A DNA stretch of 6,145 nt from positions 1-6,145 of the IMG/VR virus record IMGVR_UViG_2703718819_000022, one strand, 5' to 3'. The notes beneath the pieces were generated by a model. It worked only from the letters and a program-made list of their open reading frames with translations. It searched no databases and was not told the DNA's origin. A program made the position numbers and the translations under genes. How positions within the stretch are numbered: position 1 is the stretch's first letter; each line of letters begins with the position of its first letter. This document shows, in pieces, positions 1-6,145 of the stretch. The stretch is from a virus. Lineage: Duplodnaviria; Heunggongvirae; Uroviricota; Caudoviricetes.

Positions 1-405
1 ATGGATCAGGTCGTTGTTTTTCAAAAGATGTTTGAGCAAGTGAGAAAAGAGCAAAACTTCTCCTGGTTTTATTCAGAATTAAAACATCACCGTATTGCAC
101 ATTACATTTATTATCTGGCTACGGATAACATCAGAATTATTACTCACGATGACACGGTTTTGTTATTAAGAGGAACCAGGAACCTGTTAAAAGTTAGTAC
201 GACCAAGAACCCTGCTAAAATAAAAGAGGCCGCATTGCTTCATATTTGCGGAAAATCTACATTTCGGGAATACTGTTCAACACTAGCAGGCGCGGGCGTT
301 TTCCGGTGGGTTACTGATGTTAATCATAACAAACGCAGTTACTACGCCATTGATAATACGCTTTTATATATTGAAGATGTAGAAAATAATAAACCATTAA
401 TCTAG
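1..405 (+). CDS. hypothetical protein (134 aa), AT-rich; possible accessory/cargo gene; may be 5-prime truncated at the window edge
   Basis: ORF starts with ATG at base 1 and ends at TAG 403-405. Composition is visibly AT-rich compared with the rest of the window. No family recognised from the translation. Confidence 0.45.
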   Translation: MDQVVVFQKMFEQVRKEQNFSWFYSELKHHRIAHYIYYLATDNIRIITHDDTVLLLRGTRNLLKVSTTKNPAKIKEAALLHICGKSTFREYCSTLAGAGVFRWVTDVNHNKRSYYAIDNTLLYIEDVENNKPLI

Positions 406-639
406 CTAAAGTTGGATGCTTAAGAAATGCTGTTATATATAACTAATTTCACTTAACGCATTGATTTAATTAAATAATTTGCACTACAAAAAATGCCATA
501 AATCGCAAAATGACTACACCAGTGACTACACCGTTCGGTGCACTGTATGAAACAACGTGGAACAAATAGACACAAGAAATATACAGGCGGGTCATCTTTC
601 CAGGGGGAAGCGCGCTAATTCATGAGGGGCGTTAATGTC

Positions 640-1020
640 GATATGGGGATCCCCACCTACCGGAATTTTTTTCCGGTTAACTGTTAATCAGGCTGGTGGG
701 TTTTACATACCCTTGATCACCGTAATGATGATCCAGATCTGCACCTTTCCACCAATGGTGGAAAAGCCCACAGCAGGCCGCCCAGCCTCCACCAATGGGG
801 TAAAAGCATCAACCGTAACGAAAGTCGTTATGGTTGCCACCGATACCCCAAATTTGGGTATCACGAGTAAGCCCCAAAATCTGGGTGTTACTCTTACTAC
901 CCAAACTACGGGTAGTTTCCGTAGTTTCATGGTCGAGTTGCAGATCTGCAACTCCCCCATTAACCACAGGCGAATTTCCGCCTTCGGTCATTCCTTAATC
1001 ATCTGCGTAATCATAATGAT
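640..1020. repeat. dense array of short dyad-symmetric sequences (palindromes/hairpins), function unknown
   Basis: Seen directly: GGGGATCCCC 645-654; CCGGAA-T5-TTCCGG 660-676; CCACCA-A-TGGTGG 749-761 with degenerate copy near 787-799; AACGA-AAG-TCGTT 817-829; CCCAAATTTGGG 847-858 with degenerate copy near 872-886; AAACTACGG-N7-CCGTAGTTT 903-927; perfect 20-bp palindrome GAGTTGCAGATCTGCAACTC 935-954; AATCAT-A-ATGATT 1009-1021. Confidence 0.6.
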
Positions 1021-1023
1021 TAT

Positions 1024-1115
1024 TCAGCAAGCGCAATTTTGCGCTTTGCTTAAAGTTCAGCGAGTTACCGCGCCGACTTCCTCAAATTGAGGTTTCCGAA
1101 AATATCAACGGGTTA
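1024..1115. repeat. repeat block A: motif Y (GCGCAATTTTGCG...TCAGCGAGTTACCGCGCC, 1031-1074) followed by motif X (GTTTCCGAAAATATCAACGGGTTA, 1092-1115)
   Basis: Direct sequence comparison with block B at 1205-1277: motif X matches at 23 of 24 positions, motif Y shares two conserved sub-blocks separated by a diverged 13-nt spacer. Order of X and Y is swapped between the two blocks. Confidence 0.7.
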
Positions 1116-1139
1116 ACGATAAACTGGCGAGTAATTAAA

Positions 1140-1156
1140 CTACGAAAATTTCGTAG
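1140..1156. repeat. perfect palindrome CTACGAAA-A-TTTCGTAG (8-bp arms, 1-nt centre) lying between the two X motifs
   Basis: Read directly from sequence; reverse complement is identical apart from the central base. Confidence 0.7.
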
Positions 1157-1204
1157 CTCTGACTATCTGAAAGATAATCGTTGTTCCGGCCTCAGCCGTT
1201 GGCT

Positions 1205-1277
1205 GTTCCCGAAAATATCAACGGGTTAGGACAGAGCGCAATTTTGCGTTATCGGGAATATCAGCAAGTTACCGCCG
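1205..1277. repeat. repeat block B: motif X (GTTCCCGAAAATATCAACGGGTTA, 1205-1228) followed by motif Y (AGCGCAATTTTGCG...TCAGCAAGTTACCGCCG, 1235-1277)
   Basis: See block A. The last few codons of the 93-aa minus-strand gene overlap the end of this block. Confidence 0.7.
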
Positions 1278-1550
1278 TAATCGCTCCGGCTTCTTCCACT
1301 GGTACGTTATTTTTGCTTTTTCCCTGTACGTCTGCACGCGGCGACGGTAGGCCAGCATTTCAAGAACGCGGATCCGTATGTCGCGCATATCCGCATCATT
1401 AAGCTGGATACCATCACGGCGCATCACCTCCGCAACAACACGCACATAATTTTCGGCTGTCACGCTGTCCGGCTGCGTGGCCTGTTCGTCAGCCTGCTGG
1501 CTGATTCCGGCAACGCGACGGATTAATCGCAGTAGTTCGGCTTCTGTCAT
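1269..1550 (-). CDS. hypothetical protein (93 aa) adjacent to cos; candidate packaging-associated or regulatory factor
   Basis: The track ORF 1269..1748 begins at a GTG. The in-frame ATG at 1550-1548 is preceded by a GGGGG Shine-Dalgarno about 4 nt upstream (GATGGGGGCACA-ATG). Translation from that ATG (MTEAELLRLIRRVAG...) looks like a helical protein. No family recognised. Confidence 0.55.
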   Translation of the reverse strand: MTEAELLRLIRRVAGISQQADEQATQPDSVTAENYVRVVAEVMRRDGIQLNDADMRDIRIRVLEMLAYRRRVQTYREKAKITYQWKKPERLRR

Positions 1551-1583
1551 TGTGCCCCCATCGTTCTGATAGTCTGGTGTCGT

Positions 1584-1654
1584 CGGGTCCTTCCTGGAAT
1601 TATGGCCCGTTACGGGGCGGCGACCTCGCGCGTTTTCACTATTTATGAAAATTT
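1584..1654 (+). other. lambda-type cos, copy 1: cosQ-like GTTACG followed by cosN GGGCGGCGACCT (1615-1626), then CGCGCGTTTTCACTATTTATGAAAATTTT
   Basis: Near-identity to the phage lambda left-end sequence as I recall it (GGGCGGCGACCTCGCGGGTTTTCGCTATTTATGAAAATTTTCCGG), including the 12-nt cohesive-end sequence. Forms an inverted repeat with 2110-2181. Confidence 0.8.
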
Positions 1655-1663
1655 TCCGGGATC

Positions 1664-1782
1664 CATGTCCGGTTTCTCTGCAAGTTAACCATATGAAAAA
1701 TATAAAAACATGCTTTCCATGAACCGGACATGCGCAAAAAACAGACACTAAAACCGGACATCGTACCAGTTAACCGGAAGTG
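1664..1782 (+). promoter_or_regulatory. cosB-like region: one CATGTCCGGTT site (1664-1674), an AT-rich spacer (about 1690-1710), then inverted sites AACCGGACATG (1722-1732), AACCGGACATC (1752-1762) and AACCGGAAGTG (1772-1782)
   Basis: Repeats read directly. Their orientation pattern and distances from cosN (about +50, +108, +138) match the R3 / I1 / R2 / R1 layout of lambda cosB as I recall it. No terminase gene follows. Confidence 0.6.
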
Positions 1783-1955
1783 TGCAAAAATCACACGCAT
1801 TGCTGCGCGTGATTAACAATTTATCGGCTTTACTGTTCTGTATAGGCTGGGTGGCGTCATGCCGTAGCCGTTCTCCGTGCCAGCATGGAATAATCCGTAG
1901 TTACAGAGCGGTAAAGTTAAAAATCACTTTCTGTTACGCCATCAAATACGCGATA

Positions 1956-2100
1956 CAACAACCATGTGTTTTTACAAAACCATTTGATATCATTGAATTT
2001 TTTCACATTAATGACATCAAAATACATCGTAAGGTTGTTGTATTTATTTTATTTTTACCTTACTTATCAATTAGATATACCAAACAATTAAACAACAACC
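1956..2100 (-). repeat. second putative terminase-binding repeat set next to cos copy 2: ACAACAACC 1956-1964, GGTTGTTGT 2033-2041, ACAACAACC 2092-2100, with an AT-rich tract between
   Basis: Short repeats read directly. Relative to cosN copy 2 they sit at about +45, +110 and +190 on the minus strand with one site inverted. The motif is short, so chance occurrence is possible. Confidence 0.3.
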
Positions 2101-2109
2101 ACCCCCTCA

Positions 2110-2181
2110 AAAAATCTCATAAATAGCGAAAAACCGCGAGGTCGCCGCCCCGTAACGGGTCCATATGCCGGAAAGGACCCG
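2110..2181 (-). other. lambda-type cos, copy 2 (inverted): cosN GGGCGGCGACCT is the reverse complement of 2139-2150, preceded on the minus strand by GTTACG
   Basis: Minus-strand reading CGGGTCCTTTCCGGCATATGGACCCGTTACGGGGCGGCGACCTCGCGGTTTTTCGCTATTTATGAGATTTTTT aligns at roughly 85 percent (by eye) with copy 1 at 1584-1654, and is even closer to the recalled lambda sequence in the CGCGG-TTTTCGCTATTTATGA part. Confidence 0.75.
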
Positions 2182-2182
2182 T

Positions 2183-2206
2183 AAAAAAAAGCCGGATTTC
2201 TCCGGC
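2183..2206 (-). terminator. intrinsic terminator ending the capsid operon
   Basis: Hairpin GCCGGA-TTTC-TCCGGC (2191-2206) followed on the minus strand by T8 (plus-strand A-run 2183-2190), starting 7 nt after the stop codon at 2213-2215. Confidence 0.8.
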
Positions 2207-2212
2207 CTTGTC

Positions 2213-2626
2213 TCAGATGGTTTTCAGTATGCGATCGATGTCGCCGTCATCGCCCTGGTTTCTGCCATCGTACGCCATGCCAGCTGATACGGCTTGCGGG
2301 CTGTGCATGTCCATAAAGTTTTCAAAGGCTGCGGTAAGCTCTGGTGCAACCTTTGGGCGCTCCTGCTCTATGGTCATGTTCAGGATTTCACGAGCATTAT
2401 CGACGCTAATACATGGCACGTTTGCCATTGCACGTAACAGCGGCTGATAGTCGTTATGTTCATGAAGCGCCATAATCGCATCAGCGCGCGGCTTGTCCTG
2501 TTCTTCCAGTTTGTTGAGTTGATATACGGCCTCGTAGGTTGATAAACCTCTGTCAGCCATTGCCCGCGCTTCTGCTTTAAATTTACTCGCCAGCGGTAGC
2601 GCCATGATGCTTTCATTCGTTGCCAT
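2213..2626 (-). CDS. hypothetical protein (137 aa), last gene of the capsid operon
   Basis: ATG at 2626-2624 preceded by AGGGGA about 5 nt upstream; 12-nt gap after the gpD-like stop; followed immediately by the terminator. No family recognised. Confidence 0.65.
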   Translation of the reverse strand: MATNESIMALPLASKFKAEARAMADRGLSTYEAVYQLNKLEEQDKPRADAIMALHEHNDYQPLLRAMANVPCISVDNAREILNMTIEQERPKVAPELTAAFENFMDMHSPQAVSAGMAYDGRNQGDDGDIDRILKTI

Positions 2627-2638
2627 CGTTTCCCCTGC

Positions 2639-2974
2639 TTATCGCGCCAGCGGCTGAACGGATACGCCAGAACCCGCAAAGGCGGCGCATTTTTTCGCGT
2701 CAGTGTCGGCGCTCTCAGGCCAGTTTACGGCGGCGATATTAAATATCCCCGTCTTGTAACACTGTGCTGATTTCTGCTTTGACGTGTCCACGGGGTACGA
2801 AGTCAGATAAACAGCCTTGCCAGATTCCTGACCATCCCACGGCTTAAACTCGCCATTGTCCGCCAGCATCAGCGGGGTAAATTCCTGAATAACGCCAGCA
2901 TCAGCGGCAAAATGTACCAGCGTCGTGGATACCTGCTGACTGCCTGCAAATAACTCAATGTATGGAGTGTCCAT
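2639..2974 (-). CDS. head decoration protein, phage lambda gpD-like (111 aa)
   Basis: By-eye alignment with recalled lambda gpD: TPLMLADNGEFKPWDG vs TPLMLDTSSRKLVAWDG, and CYKTGIFNIAAVNWPESADTDAKKCAAFAGSGVSV vs [42 protein letters not shown] Shine-Dalgarno 6 nt upstream of the ATG at 2974. Confidence 0.85.
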   Translation of the reverse strand: MDTPYIELFAGSQQVSTTLVHFAADAGVIQEFTPLMLADNGEFKPWDGQESGKAVYLTSYPVDTSKQKSAQCYKTGIFNIAAVNWPESADTDAKKCAAFAGSGVSVQPLAR

Positions 2975-2986
2975 AGAATCCCCCCG

Positions 2987-4042
2987 TTAACCAATTTTGA
3001 CGGTAACAAATTTGCGAATATCTGCCGGAACCGGCTGCGGTGCGCTGTGCGTCTGCACGTACTCAATCGCCGGATCGCCGTCCTCAATCCAGTTTTTCGG
3101 GTAAAACATGTTTTGCGTTGCGCCCGTTCTTACCGCTTCCTGTTCCATAATCGCACCATAGGCCACCAGCCCTTTATTGTTGGTGTTGCCCAGGACCAGC
3201 AAATCAGGCTCAAGGAAATATTTTTCTGTGCCGTCGCTGTCAGTGTATTTGCCGGAATAGACGATAAGGGCCAGATCACCAAGATAGCCCTTAAAGCTCA
3301 CCACTTCGCCCAGGTTTTTACATGCCAGCTCTGCGGCGGATTCTGAACCACGGGAAAGATCGTACAGCTCACGGAATTTTTTAAAGCTGCGTAACATGCG
3401 CCATACATCAACGCCCATAATCATGACGTTGGCGGGGCAACCTGCCTGATCTGCGTATAGCTCAATGTCATAGATTGGATCGTGTATGTCTTTATCCTGC
3501 TCGGACCATTTTTTACCGTCGGCCTGCTCTATGATGTTTTTTTCCGGTATCTTCCAGTCGATTTCATAGCGCTCTATGCCTTCGCCCTCAATGATGTTTT
3601 TTCCGGTCGTTACCGCATTTACCGCCAGCCATTCCACGCGCGCTTTAATGGCGTTTATCTGGCGGCGCATGTTGCCAGTAATCAGGCGCATACGGCGGTA
3701 GGTAGGGTCGTTAAGCTGTGCCGGATCTTCTCCAGCCATGCGCATTATTGTTTTTAATGGATCGATTTCGTGTTTTGGCTTCATGTAGCCAGGGCGAATA
3801 ATGCTGGTTTCGTACCCTTTATCGCGCTGAACCAGGCTACCAACCATAGGCGAACAAAACGCCGACATAGTGACTTCTTCAATATCCAGGTTATCTAACA
3901 TGATGTCCTGTGTGTTGAATGTCGCCACGTTCGGGAAAAACAGCGCGGTAAACAGCGGACTGAATTTAAATTCCGCAATATCCTCGCGATTCAGGTACGC
4001 AAAAAGCTGGTTAGTGTTAAGTGCTATTGCTTTTACTGTCAT
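2987..4042 (-). CDS. major capsid protein, phage lambda gpE-like (351 aa)
   Basis: Full-length by-eye alignment with recalled lambda gpE (341 aa): EFKFSPLF / KFKFDPLF; PGYMKPKHEIDP / PGYVKPKHEVNP; EDPAQLNDPTYRRMRLI / EDPQNLADPAYRRRRII; LRSFKKFRELYDLSRGSESAAELACKNLGEVVSFKGYLGDLALIVYSGKY / FRSFKAVKEKLDTRRGSNSELETAVKDLGKAVSYKGMYGDVAIVVYSGQY; YPKNWIEDGDPAIEY..SAP / YPKNWVTTGDPAREF..SAP. GGGGGTGA Shine-Dalgarno; start overlaps the upstream stop as TAATG. Confidence 0.92.
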   Translation of the reverse strand: MTVKAIALNTNQLFAYLNREDIAEFKFSPLFTALFFPNVATFNTQDIMLDNLDIEEVTMSAFCSPMVGSLVQRDKGYETSIIRPGYMKPKHEIDPLKTIMRMAGEDPAQLNDPTYRRMRLITGNMRRQINAIKARVEWLAVNAVTTGKNIIEGEGIERYEIDWKIPEKNIIEQADGKKWSEQDKDIHDPIYDIELYADQAGCPANVMIMGVDVWRMLRSFKKFRELYDLSRGSESAAELACKNLGEVVSFKGYLGDLALIVYSGKYTDSDGTEKYFLEPDLLVLGNTNNKGLVAYGAIMEQEAVRTGATQNMFYPKNWIEDGDPAIEYVQTHSAPQPVPADIRKFVTVKIG

Positions 4043-4248
4043 TATTCACCCCCGTGAACCTGATTCATACCCAGCGCCGCGCGTAAATAGGCGCGTACCT
4101 GCCAGCCTGTTGACGGCTCAACCATCGCCAGCGGATCAAGTCCTGCCGCAATGCCTGCTTTTACGTTCTGCTGGTGGCGTTCCTTGAGCGCCTTCACGAT
4201 GTCGGGGCTTATGTACACCGAAACACCGCCTTTTTTCTCTTCAGCCAT
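4042..4248 (-). CDS. hypothetical protein (68 aa), first gene of the capsid operon, translationally coupled to the capsid gene
   Basis: ATG at 4248-4246 with AAGAGGA Shine-Dalgarno about 10 nt upstream; stop TAA overlaps the gpE-like ATG (TAATG). No family recognised. Confidence 0.6.
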   Translation of the reverse strand: MAEEKKGGVSVYISPDIVKALKERHQQNVKAGIAAGLDPLAMVEPSTGWQVRAYLRAALGMNQVHGGE

Positions 4249-4283
4249 AGTAAGAAATTCCTCTTTGACTTAAAAAATCATAA

Positions 4284-4299
4284 CTGGATGTTCATCCAG
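4284..4299. promoter_or_regulatory. operator-like dyad CTGGATG-TT-CATCCAG overlapping the predicted transcription start of the capsid operon
   Basis: Perfect 7-bp inverted arms with 2-bp spacer, read directly. Geometry is CTG-N10-CAG, the LexA-box geometry, but the interior is not the AT-rich consensus. Confidence 0.45.
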
Positions 4300-4304
4300 A
4301 TCTG

Positions 4305-4332
4305 ATTATAATCATGATTGCATTTTATGCAA
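4305..4332 (-). promoter_or_regulatory. sigma70 promoter for the capsid operon: -35 TTGCAT (4332-4327), 16-bp spacer, -10 TATAAT (4310-4305)
   Basis: Near-consensus hexamers read on the minus strand, about 50 nt upstream of the 68-aa ORF start. The -35 sits inside a second dyad TTGCAT-TTT-ATGCAA (4318-4332). Confidence 0.65.
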
Positions 4333-4410
4333 TGATGTTGAGTTGTGTTGCAAATTATGAAATGATGATCCCGATCATGTGTGTCAGTGCACAAAAAAAA
4401 CCTCATATGC

Positions 4411-4453
4411 AAAAGCCCGATAAGATGCCTCCTGTACTTATCGGGCTTTTTTT
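4411..4453. terminator. intrinsic terminator hairpin GCCCGATAAG-N12-CTTATCGGGC with T7 on the plus strand and T4 (then T8) on the minus strand; probably bidirectional
   Basis: 10-bp perfect stem 4415-4424 / 4437-4446, T-run 4447-4453, flanking A-runs 4411-4414 and 4393-4400. Confidence 0.7.
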
Positions 4454-4459
4454 GGGTAC

Positions 4460-4481
4460 AAAAAAGCCGGATTACTCCGGC
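4460..4481 (-). terminator. intrinsic terminator for the ssb / 90-aa transcript
   Basis: Hairpin GCCGGA-TTAC-TCCGGC (4466-4481) followed on the minus strand by T6 (plus-strand A-run 4460-4465), 7 nt after the stop at 4488-4490. Confidence 0.75.
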
Positions 4482-4487
4482 TGTTGA

Positions 4488-4760
4488 TTAGCTGTCTGGG
4501 TAATTACGCCATATTTCATCGCTTACACCATCTATACCCATTTCAGCATAAGTGCGATCTACTGCCTTTCTCAGGTCTCCGAAGTTATCCGGCGGCTCCG
4601 GTGGCTTCTGTGCCTTCCTGGAACATTCCAGCCGTCGCATCGTAACCTGATGCCGTTCCTTGTCTGTCTCCACCAGCAGCATGACTTCACCCCATCGCGC
4701 CGATGCCCTCCGGTAAAAGCCTTTTGCCTCGAGTTCCTCCGCTATGCGGTCATGTACCAT
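4488..4760 (-). CDS. hypothetical protein (90 aa) downstream of ssb
   Basis: The track ORF 4488..4880 begins at a GTG inside ssb. The in-frame ATG at 4760-4758 lies just after the ssb stop (4771-4773) and is preceded by GAGGGGG about 6 nt upstream, so the shorter product MVHDRIAEELEAKG... is preferred. Confidence 0.55.
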   Translation of the reverse strand: MVHDRIAEELEAKGFYRRASARWGEVMLLVETDKERHQVTMRRLECSRKAQKPPEPPDNFGDLRKAVDRTYAEMGIDGVSDEIWRNYPDS

Positions 4761-4770
4761 CGTCACCCCC

Positions 4771-5181
4771 TCAGAACTGAATATCATCACCGTAGGGGTC
4801 ATCGTCTCCCGCTGGTGGCTGATTACCCTGTGTGCCTGTGGTTTTGCGTCTGTTCCCGCCAGGACGTGCCGCACGGGCACTGATTACGCTGTCTGCAATA
4901 ACCTGATAACCCTGCCGCGTTTCCCCGTTCTGTCCGGTCCACTGGCTGACCTGCATCGTGCCGGATACGCTGGCAACGTCGCCTTTTTGATGTTTAGCCA
5001 GGAAGTCGGCCTGCTTACCAAATGCGATGACCGATAGCCATAACGTCGCCTGCCCATCCTGCGCCTGACTACATGGCAACGATACCGCCATACGTGCCAG
5101 CGTCATTGGTGTGCCCTTGCTGGTCTGTTTTACCTGCGGGTCGTCCACCAGCCGCCCGTAAGCTGCTATCTGTGCTGTCAT
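4771..5181 (-). CDS. ssb: single-stranded DNA-binding protein (136 aa)
   Basis: OB-fold-like core alignable by eye with E. coli SSB (WLSVIAFGKQADFLAKHQKGDVASVSGTMQVSQWTGQNGETRQGYQVIADSV vs [51 protein letters not shown]). Gly/Pro-rich linker and acidic C-terminal tip DDDPYGDDIQF (compare DFDDDIPF). GGAGAGG Shine-Dalgarno. Confidence 0.85.
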   Translation of the reverse strand: MTAQIAAYGRLVDDPQVKQTSKGTPMTLARMAVSLPCSQAQDGQATLWLSVIAFGKQADFLAKHQKGDVASVSGTMQVSQWTGQNGETRQGYQVIADSVISARAARPGGNRRKTTGTQGNQPPAGDDDPYGDDIQF

Positions 5182-5457
5182 GATTCCACCTCTCCGGTTT
5201 TAACGTTGATGGTTGTTACCTGTTCCGCTTCGGCAATCTCCCGCTCTGTCAGCGTGGCAAAATTTGCCGCCGTCGTGGTCATGAATGCGCTTATCAGTTC
5301 GGGATGTGCTTTCGCGTATCCTTCCCCCCGCGTGGCGGTCTATCGTTCTGATTGCCACCTTTAAAGCGTGCTCTGTCATGTCTAACGCGCGATATTTCGG
5401 TTCTGTTCTGTCTCTGCGTTTTTTGAGTGATTTGTTAAATCTTCCTGATGTGTGCAT
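5178..5457 (-). pseudogene. small gene immediately upstream of ssb, apparently split between two reading frames at a C6/G6 homopolymer (5324-5329)
   Basis: Frame 1 (track ORF 5200..5457, ATG at 5457) gives a plausible N-terminus (MHTSGRFNKSLKKRRDRTEPKYRALDMTEHALKVAIRTIDRH) and then low-complexity sequence. A second frame, open from 5339 to a TGA at 5178-5180, gives protein-like sequence (GEGYAKAHPELISAFMTTTAANFATLTEREIAEAEQVTTINVKTGEVES) and ends in an ATGA overlap with the ssb start codon. The two frames meet at the homopolymer. Confidence 0.4.
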
Positions 5458-5505
5458 TTTTATTTTTACCCTCGTGTTTAAAAAGTTTTAGGTTGTGGTG
5501 CACCT

Positions 5506-5729
5506 CCTCTACCTCTCTACCTAATCATCTTTCATGTCAGTAATGGCGCGGCTTTCAGATGGGTAGAGGGCTTTCGTGGCCCTCTACCCATCCTCTACCC
5601 GCCCCTCACAAACGATCTTAATCATGGTAGAAGAGGTAGAGAGGTTTTATTAGCCTTCTACCTAGCCCTCTACCCACTTATCATGTTGAATAATATGCGT
5701 TTATTTCATTCAGGTAGATGGGGTAGAGG
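5506..5729. repeat. iteron array, putative replication origin: at least 11 copies of CCTCTACC / GGTAGAGG in alternating paired orientation, separated by AT-rich spacers
   Basis: Copies read directly at 5506-5513, 5514-5521, 5562-5569 (inv), 5581-5588, 5592-5599, 5626-5633 (inv, degenerate), 5635-5644 (inv), 5654-5662 (degenerate), 5667-5674, 5713-5720 (inv, degenerate), 5722-5729 (inv). Includes a perfect 14-bp-arm inverted repeat GATGGGTAGAGGGC-N7-GCCCTCTACCCATC at 5558-5592. Lies directly after the C-terminus of the gene at 5744..6145. Confidence 0.7.
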
Positions 5730-5743
5730 GCTTTTACAAAAAA

Positions 5744-6145
5744 TTATAAAAACGCGTCACAATCATCAGTTGTAATTGCGTTGGTCTGCGTTACTCCCTT
5801 AACTCTCCGCGTAATATATTCATGTCCGTAAACTTTTGCCGCTGGCTTCATGGCCTTGCTGAACTCAGCCACGTTTAGCGGTTTGCTCCTGCCTGCGTAT
5901 GCCATAAACGCCAGATAGACGCGGTAAAGGCTGTTTCTGGTCGTGTACTTCACTGAATCGCCACCGCCGCCCATCATCAGGCCGCGTGCTTCCTCCAGAA
6001 AATTCAGGAACTGGCAAAACTCAATAACCGGATCCGTCTGTTGCTTTATTGCCAGAGCTTCATCACCGTCGCGCTGTTCCAGTAATAAAGCCCGTGCCTT
6101 TTCAGGGTCGGCAAAATTAGCCAGCAAGCGACGGATAATTACGGG
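5744..6145 (-). CDS. C-terminal fragment of a larger protein running off the right edge; putative replication initiator (primase/Rep-like) by position next to the iteron origin
   Basis: The reading frame is open to the window edge: the track start at 6127 is a TTG and the codons upstream of it (PVIIRR) continue in frame to base 6145. Stop at 5744-5746 immediately flanks the iterons. Function is inferred from synteny only. Confidence 0.5.
   Translation of the reverse strand, partial: PVIIRRLLANFADPEKARALLLEQRDGDEALAIKQQTDPVIEFCQFLNFLEEARGLMMGGGGDSVKYTTRNSLYRVYLAFMAYAGRSKPLNVAEFSKAMKPAAKVYGHEYITRRVKGVTQTNAITTDDCDAFL

Follow-up and report, generated by a model that had tools for sequence, protein, structure and literature searches.

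Just upstream of the ssb gene in the DNA studied here, two reading frames overlap, each encoding one half of a plausible small protein, and the change of frame falls in a run of six identical bases. Does this locus hold two small genes, one gene that depends on a shift of frame for its expression, one gene that has been broken by mutation, or one intact gene that has been misread? We addressed this question in the window, the whole stretch of 6,145 nucleotides (positions 1 to 6,145 of the IMG/VR virus record IMGVR_UViG_2703718819_000022), which forms part of a phage-satellite island of E. coli and in which the genes around the split all lie on the minus strand.

Reading frames across the homopolymer

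A preliminary description of this DNA had claimed that two frames, each with half of a small protein, switch at 5324-5329. We confirmed all of its coordinates and assign the features to the minus strand (Table 1). The run is the sole homopolymer of six or more bases within the split-gene interval. In the frame of the 85-residue ORF, codons 42-45 read CAC GCG GGG GGA, the six G being 5329-5324. The +1 frame is already open shortly before the run, and from 5324 it encodes EGYAKAHPELISAFMTTTAANFATLTEREIAEAEQVTTINVKTGEVES. The original frame runs on beyond the run into a tail of 41 residues, for which database protein comparison returned as relatives only other frameshifted copies, and it ends 4 nt ahead of the Shine-Dalgarno sequence of ssb and 18 nt before the ssb ATG.

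Table 1. Positions of the split gene, its parts and its neighbours in the window
Feature	Position	Strand	Basis and remarks
Primase/replicase gene, 3' end, D5-like C-terminal domain	5744..6145	-	Pfam Pox_D5, E 2.8e-5; 'DNA primase family protein' in relatives
Iteron field, GGTAGAGG / CCTCTACC, both orientations	5502..5736	.	between primase gene and split gene; putative PICI origin
Frame-0 ORF, 85 aa	5457..5200 (ATG 5457 to TAA 5202-5200)	-	sequence reading
N-terminal half, M1-G44, original frame	5326..5457	-	a basic, variable N-terminus followed by helix 1 of the predicted hairpin; alignments, AF2 model
G6 run (C6 on the plus strand)	5324..5329	-	includes the single inserted G; in relatives the tract is G5 or 5 nt with an interruption (codons GCN GGN GAA)
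Out-of-frame tail of the 85-aa product (GRIRESTS...NNHQR)	5200..5325	-	ends at TAA 5202-5200
C-terminal half, E45-S92 and TGA, +1 frame	5178..5324	-	bears most of the GxGYAKxHPELIxAFM motif and helix 2
Shine-Dalgarno-like GGAGAGG	5189..5195	-	7 nt upstream of the ssb ATG, within the 3' end of the ancestral gene; read from the sequence
ATGA stop/start overlap, ancestral gene/ssb	5178..5181	-	relatives show the same overlap
ssb, 136 aa, intact	4771..5181	-	Pfam SSB, E 4.2e-17; relatives annotated SSB

The stop of the downstream half had also been said to overlap the ssb start. This is the case: the TGA of the +1 frame (5180-5178) and the ATG of ssb (5181-5179) form an ATGA, which is kept in relatives. 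The Shine-Dalgarno sequence lies inside the upstream gene, and the same overlap was found in the islands L002, L004, L005 and L007 and in CFT073, as is expected of an ATGA-coupled pair. The arrangement fits translational coupling of the split gene to ssb, and to judge by the sequence the earlier suggestion of such coupling was correct.

Two halves of one conserved gene

When one G is removed from the run, a protein of 92 amino acids results, of which residues 12-92 match positions 3-83 of the 83-position profile phrog_1231 with an E value of 2.9e-51. The repaired protein is identical to a database protein that is recorded on 20 contigs in E. coli. In the nearest relatives from complete genomes the same DNA carries G5 and forms a single ORF of 279 nt, annotated as hypothetical protein. 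The intact gene normally encodes 83-92 amino acids in relatives, and every other family member examined is a single ORF. The preliminary description had proposed one gene split at the homopolymer and had asked for the tract length in homologues; these turned out to be one uninterrupted ORF with a different length, G5, and the proposal of one gene is borne out by this, by the 92-residue repair and by the phrog_1231 match. Members of phrog_1231 are full-length single ORFs, whereas the window copy as encoded has only residues 1-44 in frame; it is, as read here, a disrupted member of this family.

The family is large. A profile built from close homologues matched 656 representative clusters at E ≤ 1e-3, with the core IDxxFGxGYAKxHPELIAAFMxTAAxDF, and the conserved block IDxxFGxGYAKxHPELIAAFM spans the shift point. 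All core residues (I39, D40, G44, G46, A48, H51, P52, L54 and M59) are still encoded in the window, I39, D40 and G44 in the original frame and the rest in the +1 frame. The pattern of substitutions agrees with one continuous coding sequence: among 58 distinct homologues, taken from IMG/VR and from contigs of metagenomes, the variable columns favour the third codon positions of one common frame, with 15 vs. 6 and 6 upstream of the run and 22 vs. 7 and 5 downstream. This count was restricted to the core region; a first version had been confounded by mosaic ends.

The extra G in independent records

There is little chance that the extra G is a homopolymer error of sequencing or assembly and that the true genome carries G5 with an intact gene. 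Indels in homopolymers are a classic error of several platforms, and a noisy assembly of a relative, GCA_046507405.1 (L193), has G4 at this site, in addition to 29 gap openings over 3.3 kb and a primase gene in fragments; moreover, two Swiss assemblies from one project show G6 at 2-3 places each. However, no other gene in the window is broken, the genes for SSB, the PerC homologue, the capsid and the decoration protein all being intact, and the G6 allele occurs in at least 11 further records that stem from various projects and assemblers. The haplotype of the window was found in STEC2018-607 and S19-651 (both from Switzerland), in the second island of JNEC-KY203 (Japan), in three Logan assemblies of SRA runs, in one ENA metagenome contig and in two IMG/VR isolate-genome contigs. 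These copies are at least 99.2% identical to the window where they overlap its 968 nt comprising the primase 3' end, the origin and the gene, and across this region the only gap against the window is a single one in L001 (STEC2018-607). Gapless alignment to several independent G6 records (the MEGAHIT-style ENA contig, Logan, IMG/VR isolate contigs, and Swiss and Japanese RefSeq genomes) speaks against an error. Across the same 968 nt, identity to the window is 98.6% and 97.3% for the G5 sequences that come nearest.

JNEC-KY203 is of particular value here, as it contains two related islands, one with G5 and one with G6 in the same local context. The G5 copy, intact at L002 1604-1882, matches the window's 240-nt origin exactly and is identical over the 461-nt gene region except for one G. 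The G6 copy agrees with the window base for base along the 708 nt that lead to an IS1 insertion, as well as in the 90 nt surrounding the run; in this island (L006 6171-7191) the 5' end of the gene has been lost to the IS1 element. Since both tract lengths were resolved within one assembly, a systematic error that depends on the local sequence offers no explanation. As judged from these records, the extra G is a genuine, heritable insertion.

The frameshift itself is already known, as RefSeq annotates the same sequence as a frameshifted pseudogene. JFX52_RS04070 of STEC2018-607 (NZ_CP075697.1 810561-810840) is an identical 280-bp G6 sequence in the same position between primase/ori and ssb, and JFY28_RS02850 and AC0JZ7_RS16270 are its equivalents; the identical sequence is described by PGAP as 'hypothetical protein, frameshifted'. 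The gene itself does not differ from that of the window, and the island is 98.4% identical overall.

A 46-mer that can seed only across G6 matched three places in S19-651 (NZ_CP075852.1) and two in STEC2018-607 (NZ_CP075697.1), of which one each was located. The additional places were not found with a chimeric anchor query, with three alternative-background queries or in the 40-kb neighbourhood. They could be further copies of the island, the outcome of gene conversion or an artefact of one sequencing project. We also considered P0033 as a compensated double frameshift and discarded it; it comes from a very noisy assembly and is hence uninformative on selection.

Variation of the tract length

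In homologous hits from IMG/VR and metagenomes, the spacer between CCGCCACGC and AAGGATACGC has 5 nt in 116 of 118 cases, namely GGGGG (88 hits), CGGAG (12), TGGGG (7), CGGGG (5), GGGAG (3) and AGGGG (1); GGGGGG was found in 2. All 5-nt variants are synonymous and encode Ala-Gly-Glu, and therefore the homopolymer as such is not conserved. In about one quarter of the distinct homologue sequences the run is broken by synonymous substitutions.

When 5,426 complete E. coli genomes were queried with 44-47-mers, designed so that the seed must span the run, G5 was present in 440 genomes, G6 in 3, G4 in 1 and G7 in none. Off-length alleles thus make up about 1% (4 of 444 genomes), and about 99% of the copies are in frame. 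The G4 (-1) allele belongs to E. coli 2014C-3051 (L200 520-764) and lies in a different element, in which a RepA-type helicase is encoded upstream and ssb is missing downstream; this allele, too, is annotated as frameshifted. G6 was also found on at least two further upstream backgrounds, one with an HM670-type origin (L198) and one with an unrelated upstream region (L196 and L197, the latter contig being present in five samples), and the cluster of frameshifted products includes versions with other N-termini. The core gene is otherwise 100% identical in L196, L197 and L198. The identical core is present in G5 copies as well, which fits both recurrent slippage and the recombination of one G6 allele into other islands. 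Either the run is a modest hotspot of recurrent indels, or the G6 allele spreads by recombination.

Comparison with recoding and phase variation

The recurrence of indels leaves some room for a switch-like role of the run, either as a phase-variable tract or as a site of +1 ribosomal or transcriptional slippage that gives a reduced amount of full-length protein. We consider this very unlikely. Changes in length do recur across backgrounds, G6 being seen in three or more upstream contexts and G4 in a further one, and if tRNA-Gly slipped by +1 from one GGG onto the following one, exactly the wild-type sequence would result; the next codons in the original frame, GGA, AGG and AUA, are rare in E. 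coli. On the other hand, the run is short, not conserved and often interrupted by synonymous changes, off-length alleles are scarce, and the rest of the family consists of single ORFs. Downstream of the run no standout RNA structure was detected, the 96 nt from the run onward folding no better than shuffled sequences (z -0.32), and an Rfam search of the window gave no family match. That one of the G6 copies was also struck by IS1 fits a dispensable gene and not a regulated one.

The two known systems that come closest differ in the same respects. In prfB, which encodes RF2, the full-length product likewise needs a +1 shift at which the P-site tRNA re-pairs perfectly, and a G-rich, Shine-Dalgarno-like sequence lies nearby. 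However, prfB keeps its shift site and its split across species, and every member requires them, while here only a rare, derived allele is split; the split gene also has neither an in-frame stop at the shift site nor a conserved stimulator. A conserved slippery site with a two-frame layout, as in programmed frameshifting, was not found among the homologues (an in-frame 5-nt spacer in 116 of 118; G5 440 vs. G6 3). Contingency loci of Neisseria, Haemophilus and Campylobacter share with our locus a G or C homopolymer in a coding sequence, a switch of frame upon change of its length, and recurrent indels. Their tracts are usually at least 8 bases long, and on and off lengths are both common in populations. 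By contrast, the functional tract here has 5 nt, is often interrupted and is nearly always in frame, with G4, G5, G6 and G7 counted 1, 440, 3 and 0 times.

A weaker form of the idea is that the G6 allele is attenuated and not null. Slippage of tRNA-Gly by +1 on G GGG GGA AGG AUA at rare codons would then supply the wild-type 92-residue protein at a low level, and the recurrent changes between G5, G6 and G4 would act as a crude dial. If this were true, changes of the tract would tune a replication-module protein of PICI satellites, but we regard it as a long shot.

That the two ORFs are separate functional small genes which only resemble the halves of one is hardly credible: an in-frame ATG at 5282 does open a 34-residue ORF that ends at the ATGA overlap and is predicted by some gene callers, but this ATG is not preceded by a Shine-Dalgarno sequence, the tail of the 85-residue product has no relatives beyond other frameshifted copies, and the comparison with homologues, which run as single ORFs across the junction with the conserved motif spanning it, rules two genes out. 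In annotation, the split ORFs should be treated as a single disrupted gene and not as two small proteins.

Thus, we favour an ordinary inactivating mutation: one G was very probably inserted into the G5 run by replication slippage, leaving an inactivated pseudogene in a satellite island. The preliminary description had left three options for the locus, and our data support the recent inactivating frameshift among them. A sequencing indel is disfavoured by the same G6 haplotype in at least 11 other records and by G5 and G6 side by side in one genome, and slippage-prone expression control by a run that is not conserved and a G6 allele that is rare. For biology at large this is of little importance, as it adds just another pseudogene, frameshifted at a homopolymer, to those of mobile elements.

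Predicted structure and effect of the frameshift

The shift follows codon 44 (G44), inside the most conserved motif of the family. An AF2 model based on a deep alignment with remote relatives predicts a helical hairpin with helices at residues 20-43 and 52-82 and a turn at AGEGY, the block means of pLDDT being 86-98 across residues 21-70; a first model from a shallow alignment had been poor (pLDDT 63). The shift site would thus coincide with the turn between the two helices. According to the proposed mechanism, replication slippage would have added a single G to G5 and turned GCG GGG GAA into GCG GGG GGA A, and the G6 allele would produce no more than helix 1 and, after it, 41 nonsense residues. 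We infer from the sequence a loss of function, which may be incomplete.

The shifted frame happens to be open up to the TAA near the Shine-Dalgarno sequence of ssb. Since this stop lies just upstream, ribosomes would still arrive at the ssb start, so that expression of ssb is probably little affected and a polar effect is not expected. Such a lesion would be easy to tolerate, which would help to explain the persistence of the allele.

The satellite island and its relatives

By its gene content, the window is part of a Gram-negative phage-inducible island (PICI, a phage satellite) of the EcCICFT073 type. The genes follow in the order primase 3' end, iteron field, split gene, ssb, PerC homologue, 68-residue ORF, lambda-E-like capsid gene, lambda-D-like decoration gene and 137-residue ORF. 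Near-identical islands add upstream an integrase, an HTH regulator, Ash, Icd and a DUF4222 gene; with the integrase and the HTH regulator of the near-identical L001 island, the modules of the window have the gene order of a PICI, and the order in CFT073 is the same. It has been described that islands of the EcCICFT073 type consist of int, an alpA-type regulator, pri-rep, an iteron origin and a packaging/interference module with capsid and decoration homologues, that PerC is frequent in them, and that PICI origins are sets of iterons downstream of pri-rep (PMC6092414). The iteron field of the window looks like such an origin and is a putative one. Its iterons are 8-14 nt long and dense, with a periodic spacing of 73-87 nt, and a 100% identical origin is present in the G5 island of JNEC-KY203.

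The positional orthologue in EcCICFT073, the prototype of Gram-negative PICIs (strain CFT073, NC_004431.1 1384284-1384541, WP_001260558.1), lies between pri-rep/ori and ssb, is intact and encodes 85 amino acids. Protein identity with the split gene is 71%; its run is G5, its stop and the ssb start overlap in an ATGA as in the window, and synteny between the window-type islands and EcCICFT073 extends over DUF4222/RgdR, primase, iterons, the orthologue, ssb, PerC, the 68-residue ORF, capsid E and decoration D. In contrast to the window copy, the CFT073 gene is not disrupted, and it has a shorter N-terminus. Counted from c1499 and c1500, the tags of the capsid and decoration genes (PMC6092414), and from C1493, which is RgdR (PMC3378721), the orthologue is probably c1495. 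An identity of the split gene with RgdR (ECs1581 / C1493) was considered and rejected: RgdR is the 99-residue DUF4222 gene just upstream of the primase, with RGD at residues 20-22, while the split gene lies downstream, lacks an RGD motif and has no Pfam hit.

Function of the intact protein

The repaired protein gave no match in Pfam or NCBIfam, and in PHROGs it matched only its family of unknown function. A sequence search of the PDB with a 66-sequence profile returned nothing meaningful; Foldseek found no PDB match at E<6, and its BFVD matches were uncharacterised phage proteins only. A Pfam scan of longer remote relatives yielded only CHAT/Sel1 and T5orf172 matches, located elsewhere in two proteins. 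Likewise, the searchable papers report no function for c1495 or for the ssb-adjacent genes of EcCICFT073 and EcCIMP1.

Our best guess is that the intact protein is an accessory factor of the satellite replication module. The members of this large, uncharacterised family are helical hairpins by prediction, and the PICI member sits at the junction of the replication module, where it appears coupled to ssb. On account of this position the gene is a candidate for simple knockout experiments in EcCICFT073. The natural G6 and G4 alleles, including the genome with both a G5 and a G6 island, may serve as ready-made loss-of-function variants.

Further observations on the window and its relatives

Positions 1-431 of the window match the chromosome of S19-651 at ycgX (DUF1398) with 100% identity, which places the end of the island roughly at 431-650. 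The orientation and placement of the island relative to ycgX differ from those in S19-651, in which the two are separated by iraM, a fragment of icd and the integrase. Between ycgX and the 137-residue ORF (about 430-2200) the window contains short, weakly supported ORFs only, where relatives have one annotated hypothetical protein of 93 amino acids, and a segment of about 84 nt (about 1168-1252) does not align to the nearest islands. The 137-residue ORF itself (2213-2626, minus strand), which follows the decoration gene, matches phrog_1999 and more weakly (E 7e-10) the C-terminal ~75 residues of the head-maturation-protease family phrog_53; the sequence suggests a scaffold-like fragment without the protease domain.

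The ORF of the PerC homologue (4488-4880, minus strand) extends over 130 amino acids from a GTG inside ssb, with the Pfam match beginning at residue 41. PGAP calls this gene at 90 amino acids, with a start about 10 nt past the ssb stop, and the long form is probably not real.

Both ends of the split gene vary among islands. The 3' tail encodes TGEVES, TGEQTA, NVEVES or SAGE, and the N-terminus differs as well. One contig (L008 2922-3700, Logan SRR8715613) carries the window-type G6 allele up to about 20 nt short of the gene's end; from there it continues into another downstream module, which has two small ORFs, a small terminase and a different type of capsid in place of ssb. The two ends behave as if they were junctions of module recombination. 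Finally, P0135, a protein of 202 amino acids annotated as SSB, falls into the same 90% cluster as the intact 92-residue protein; it is presumably a fusion of a homologue of the split gene with ssb, brought about in some strains by an indel near the ATGA overlap.
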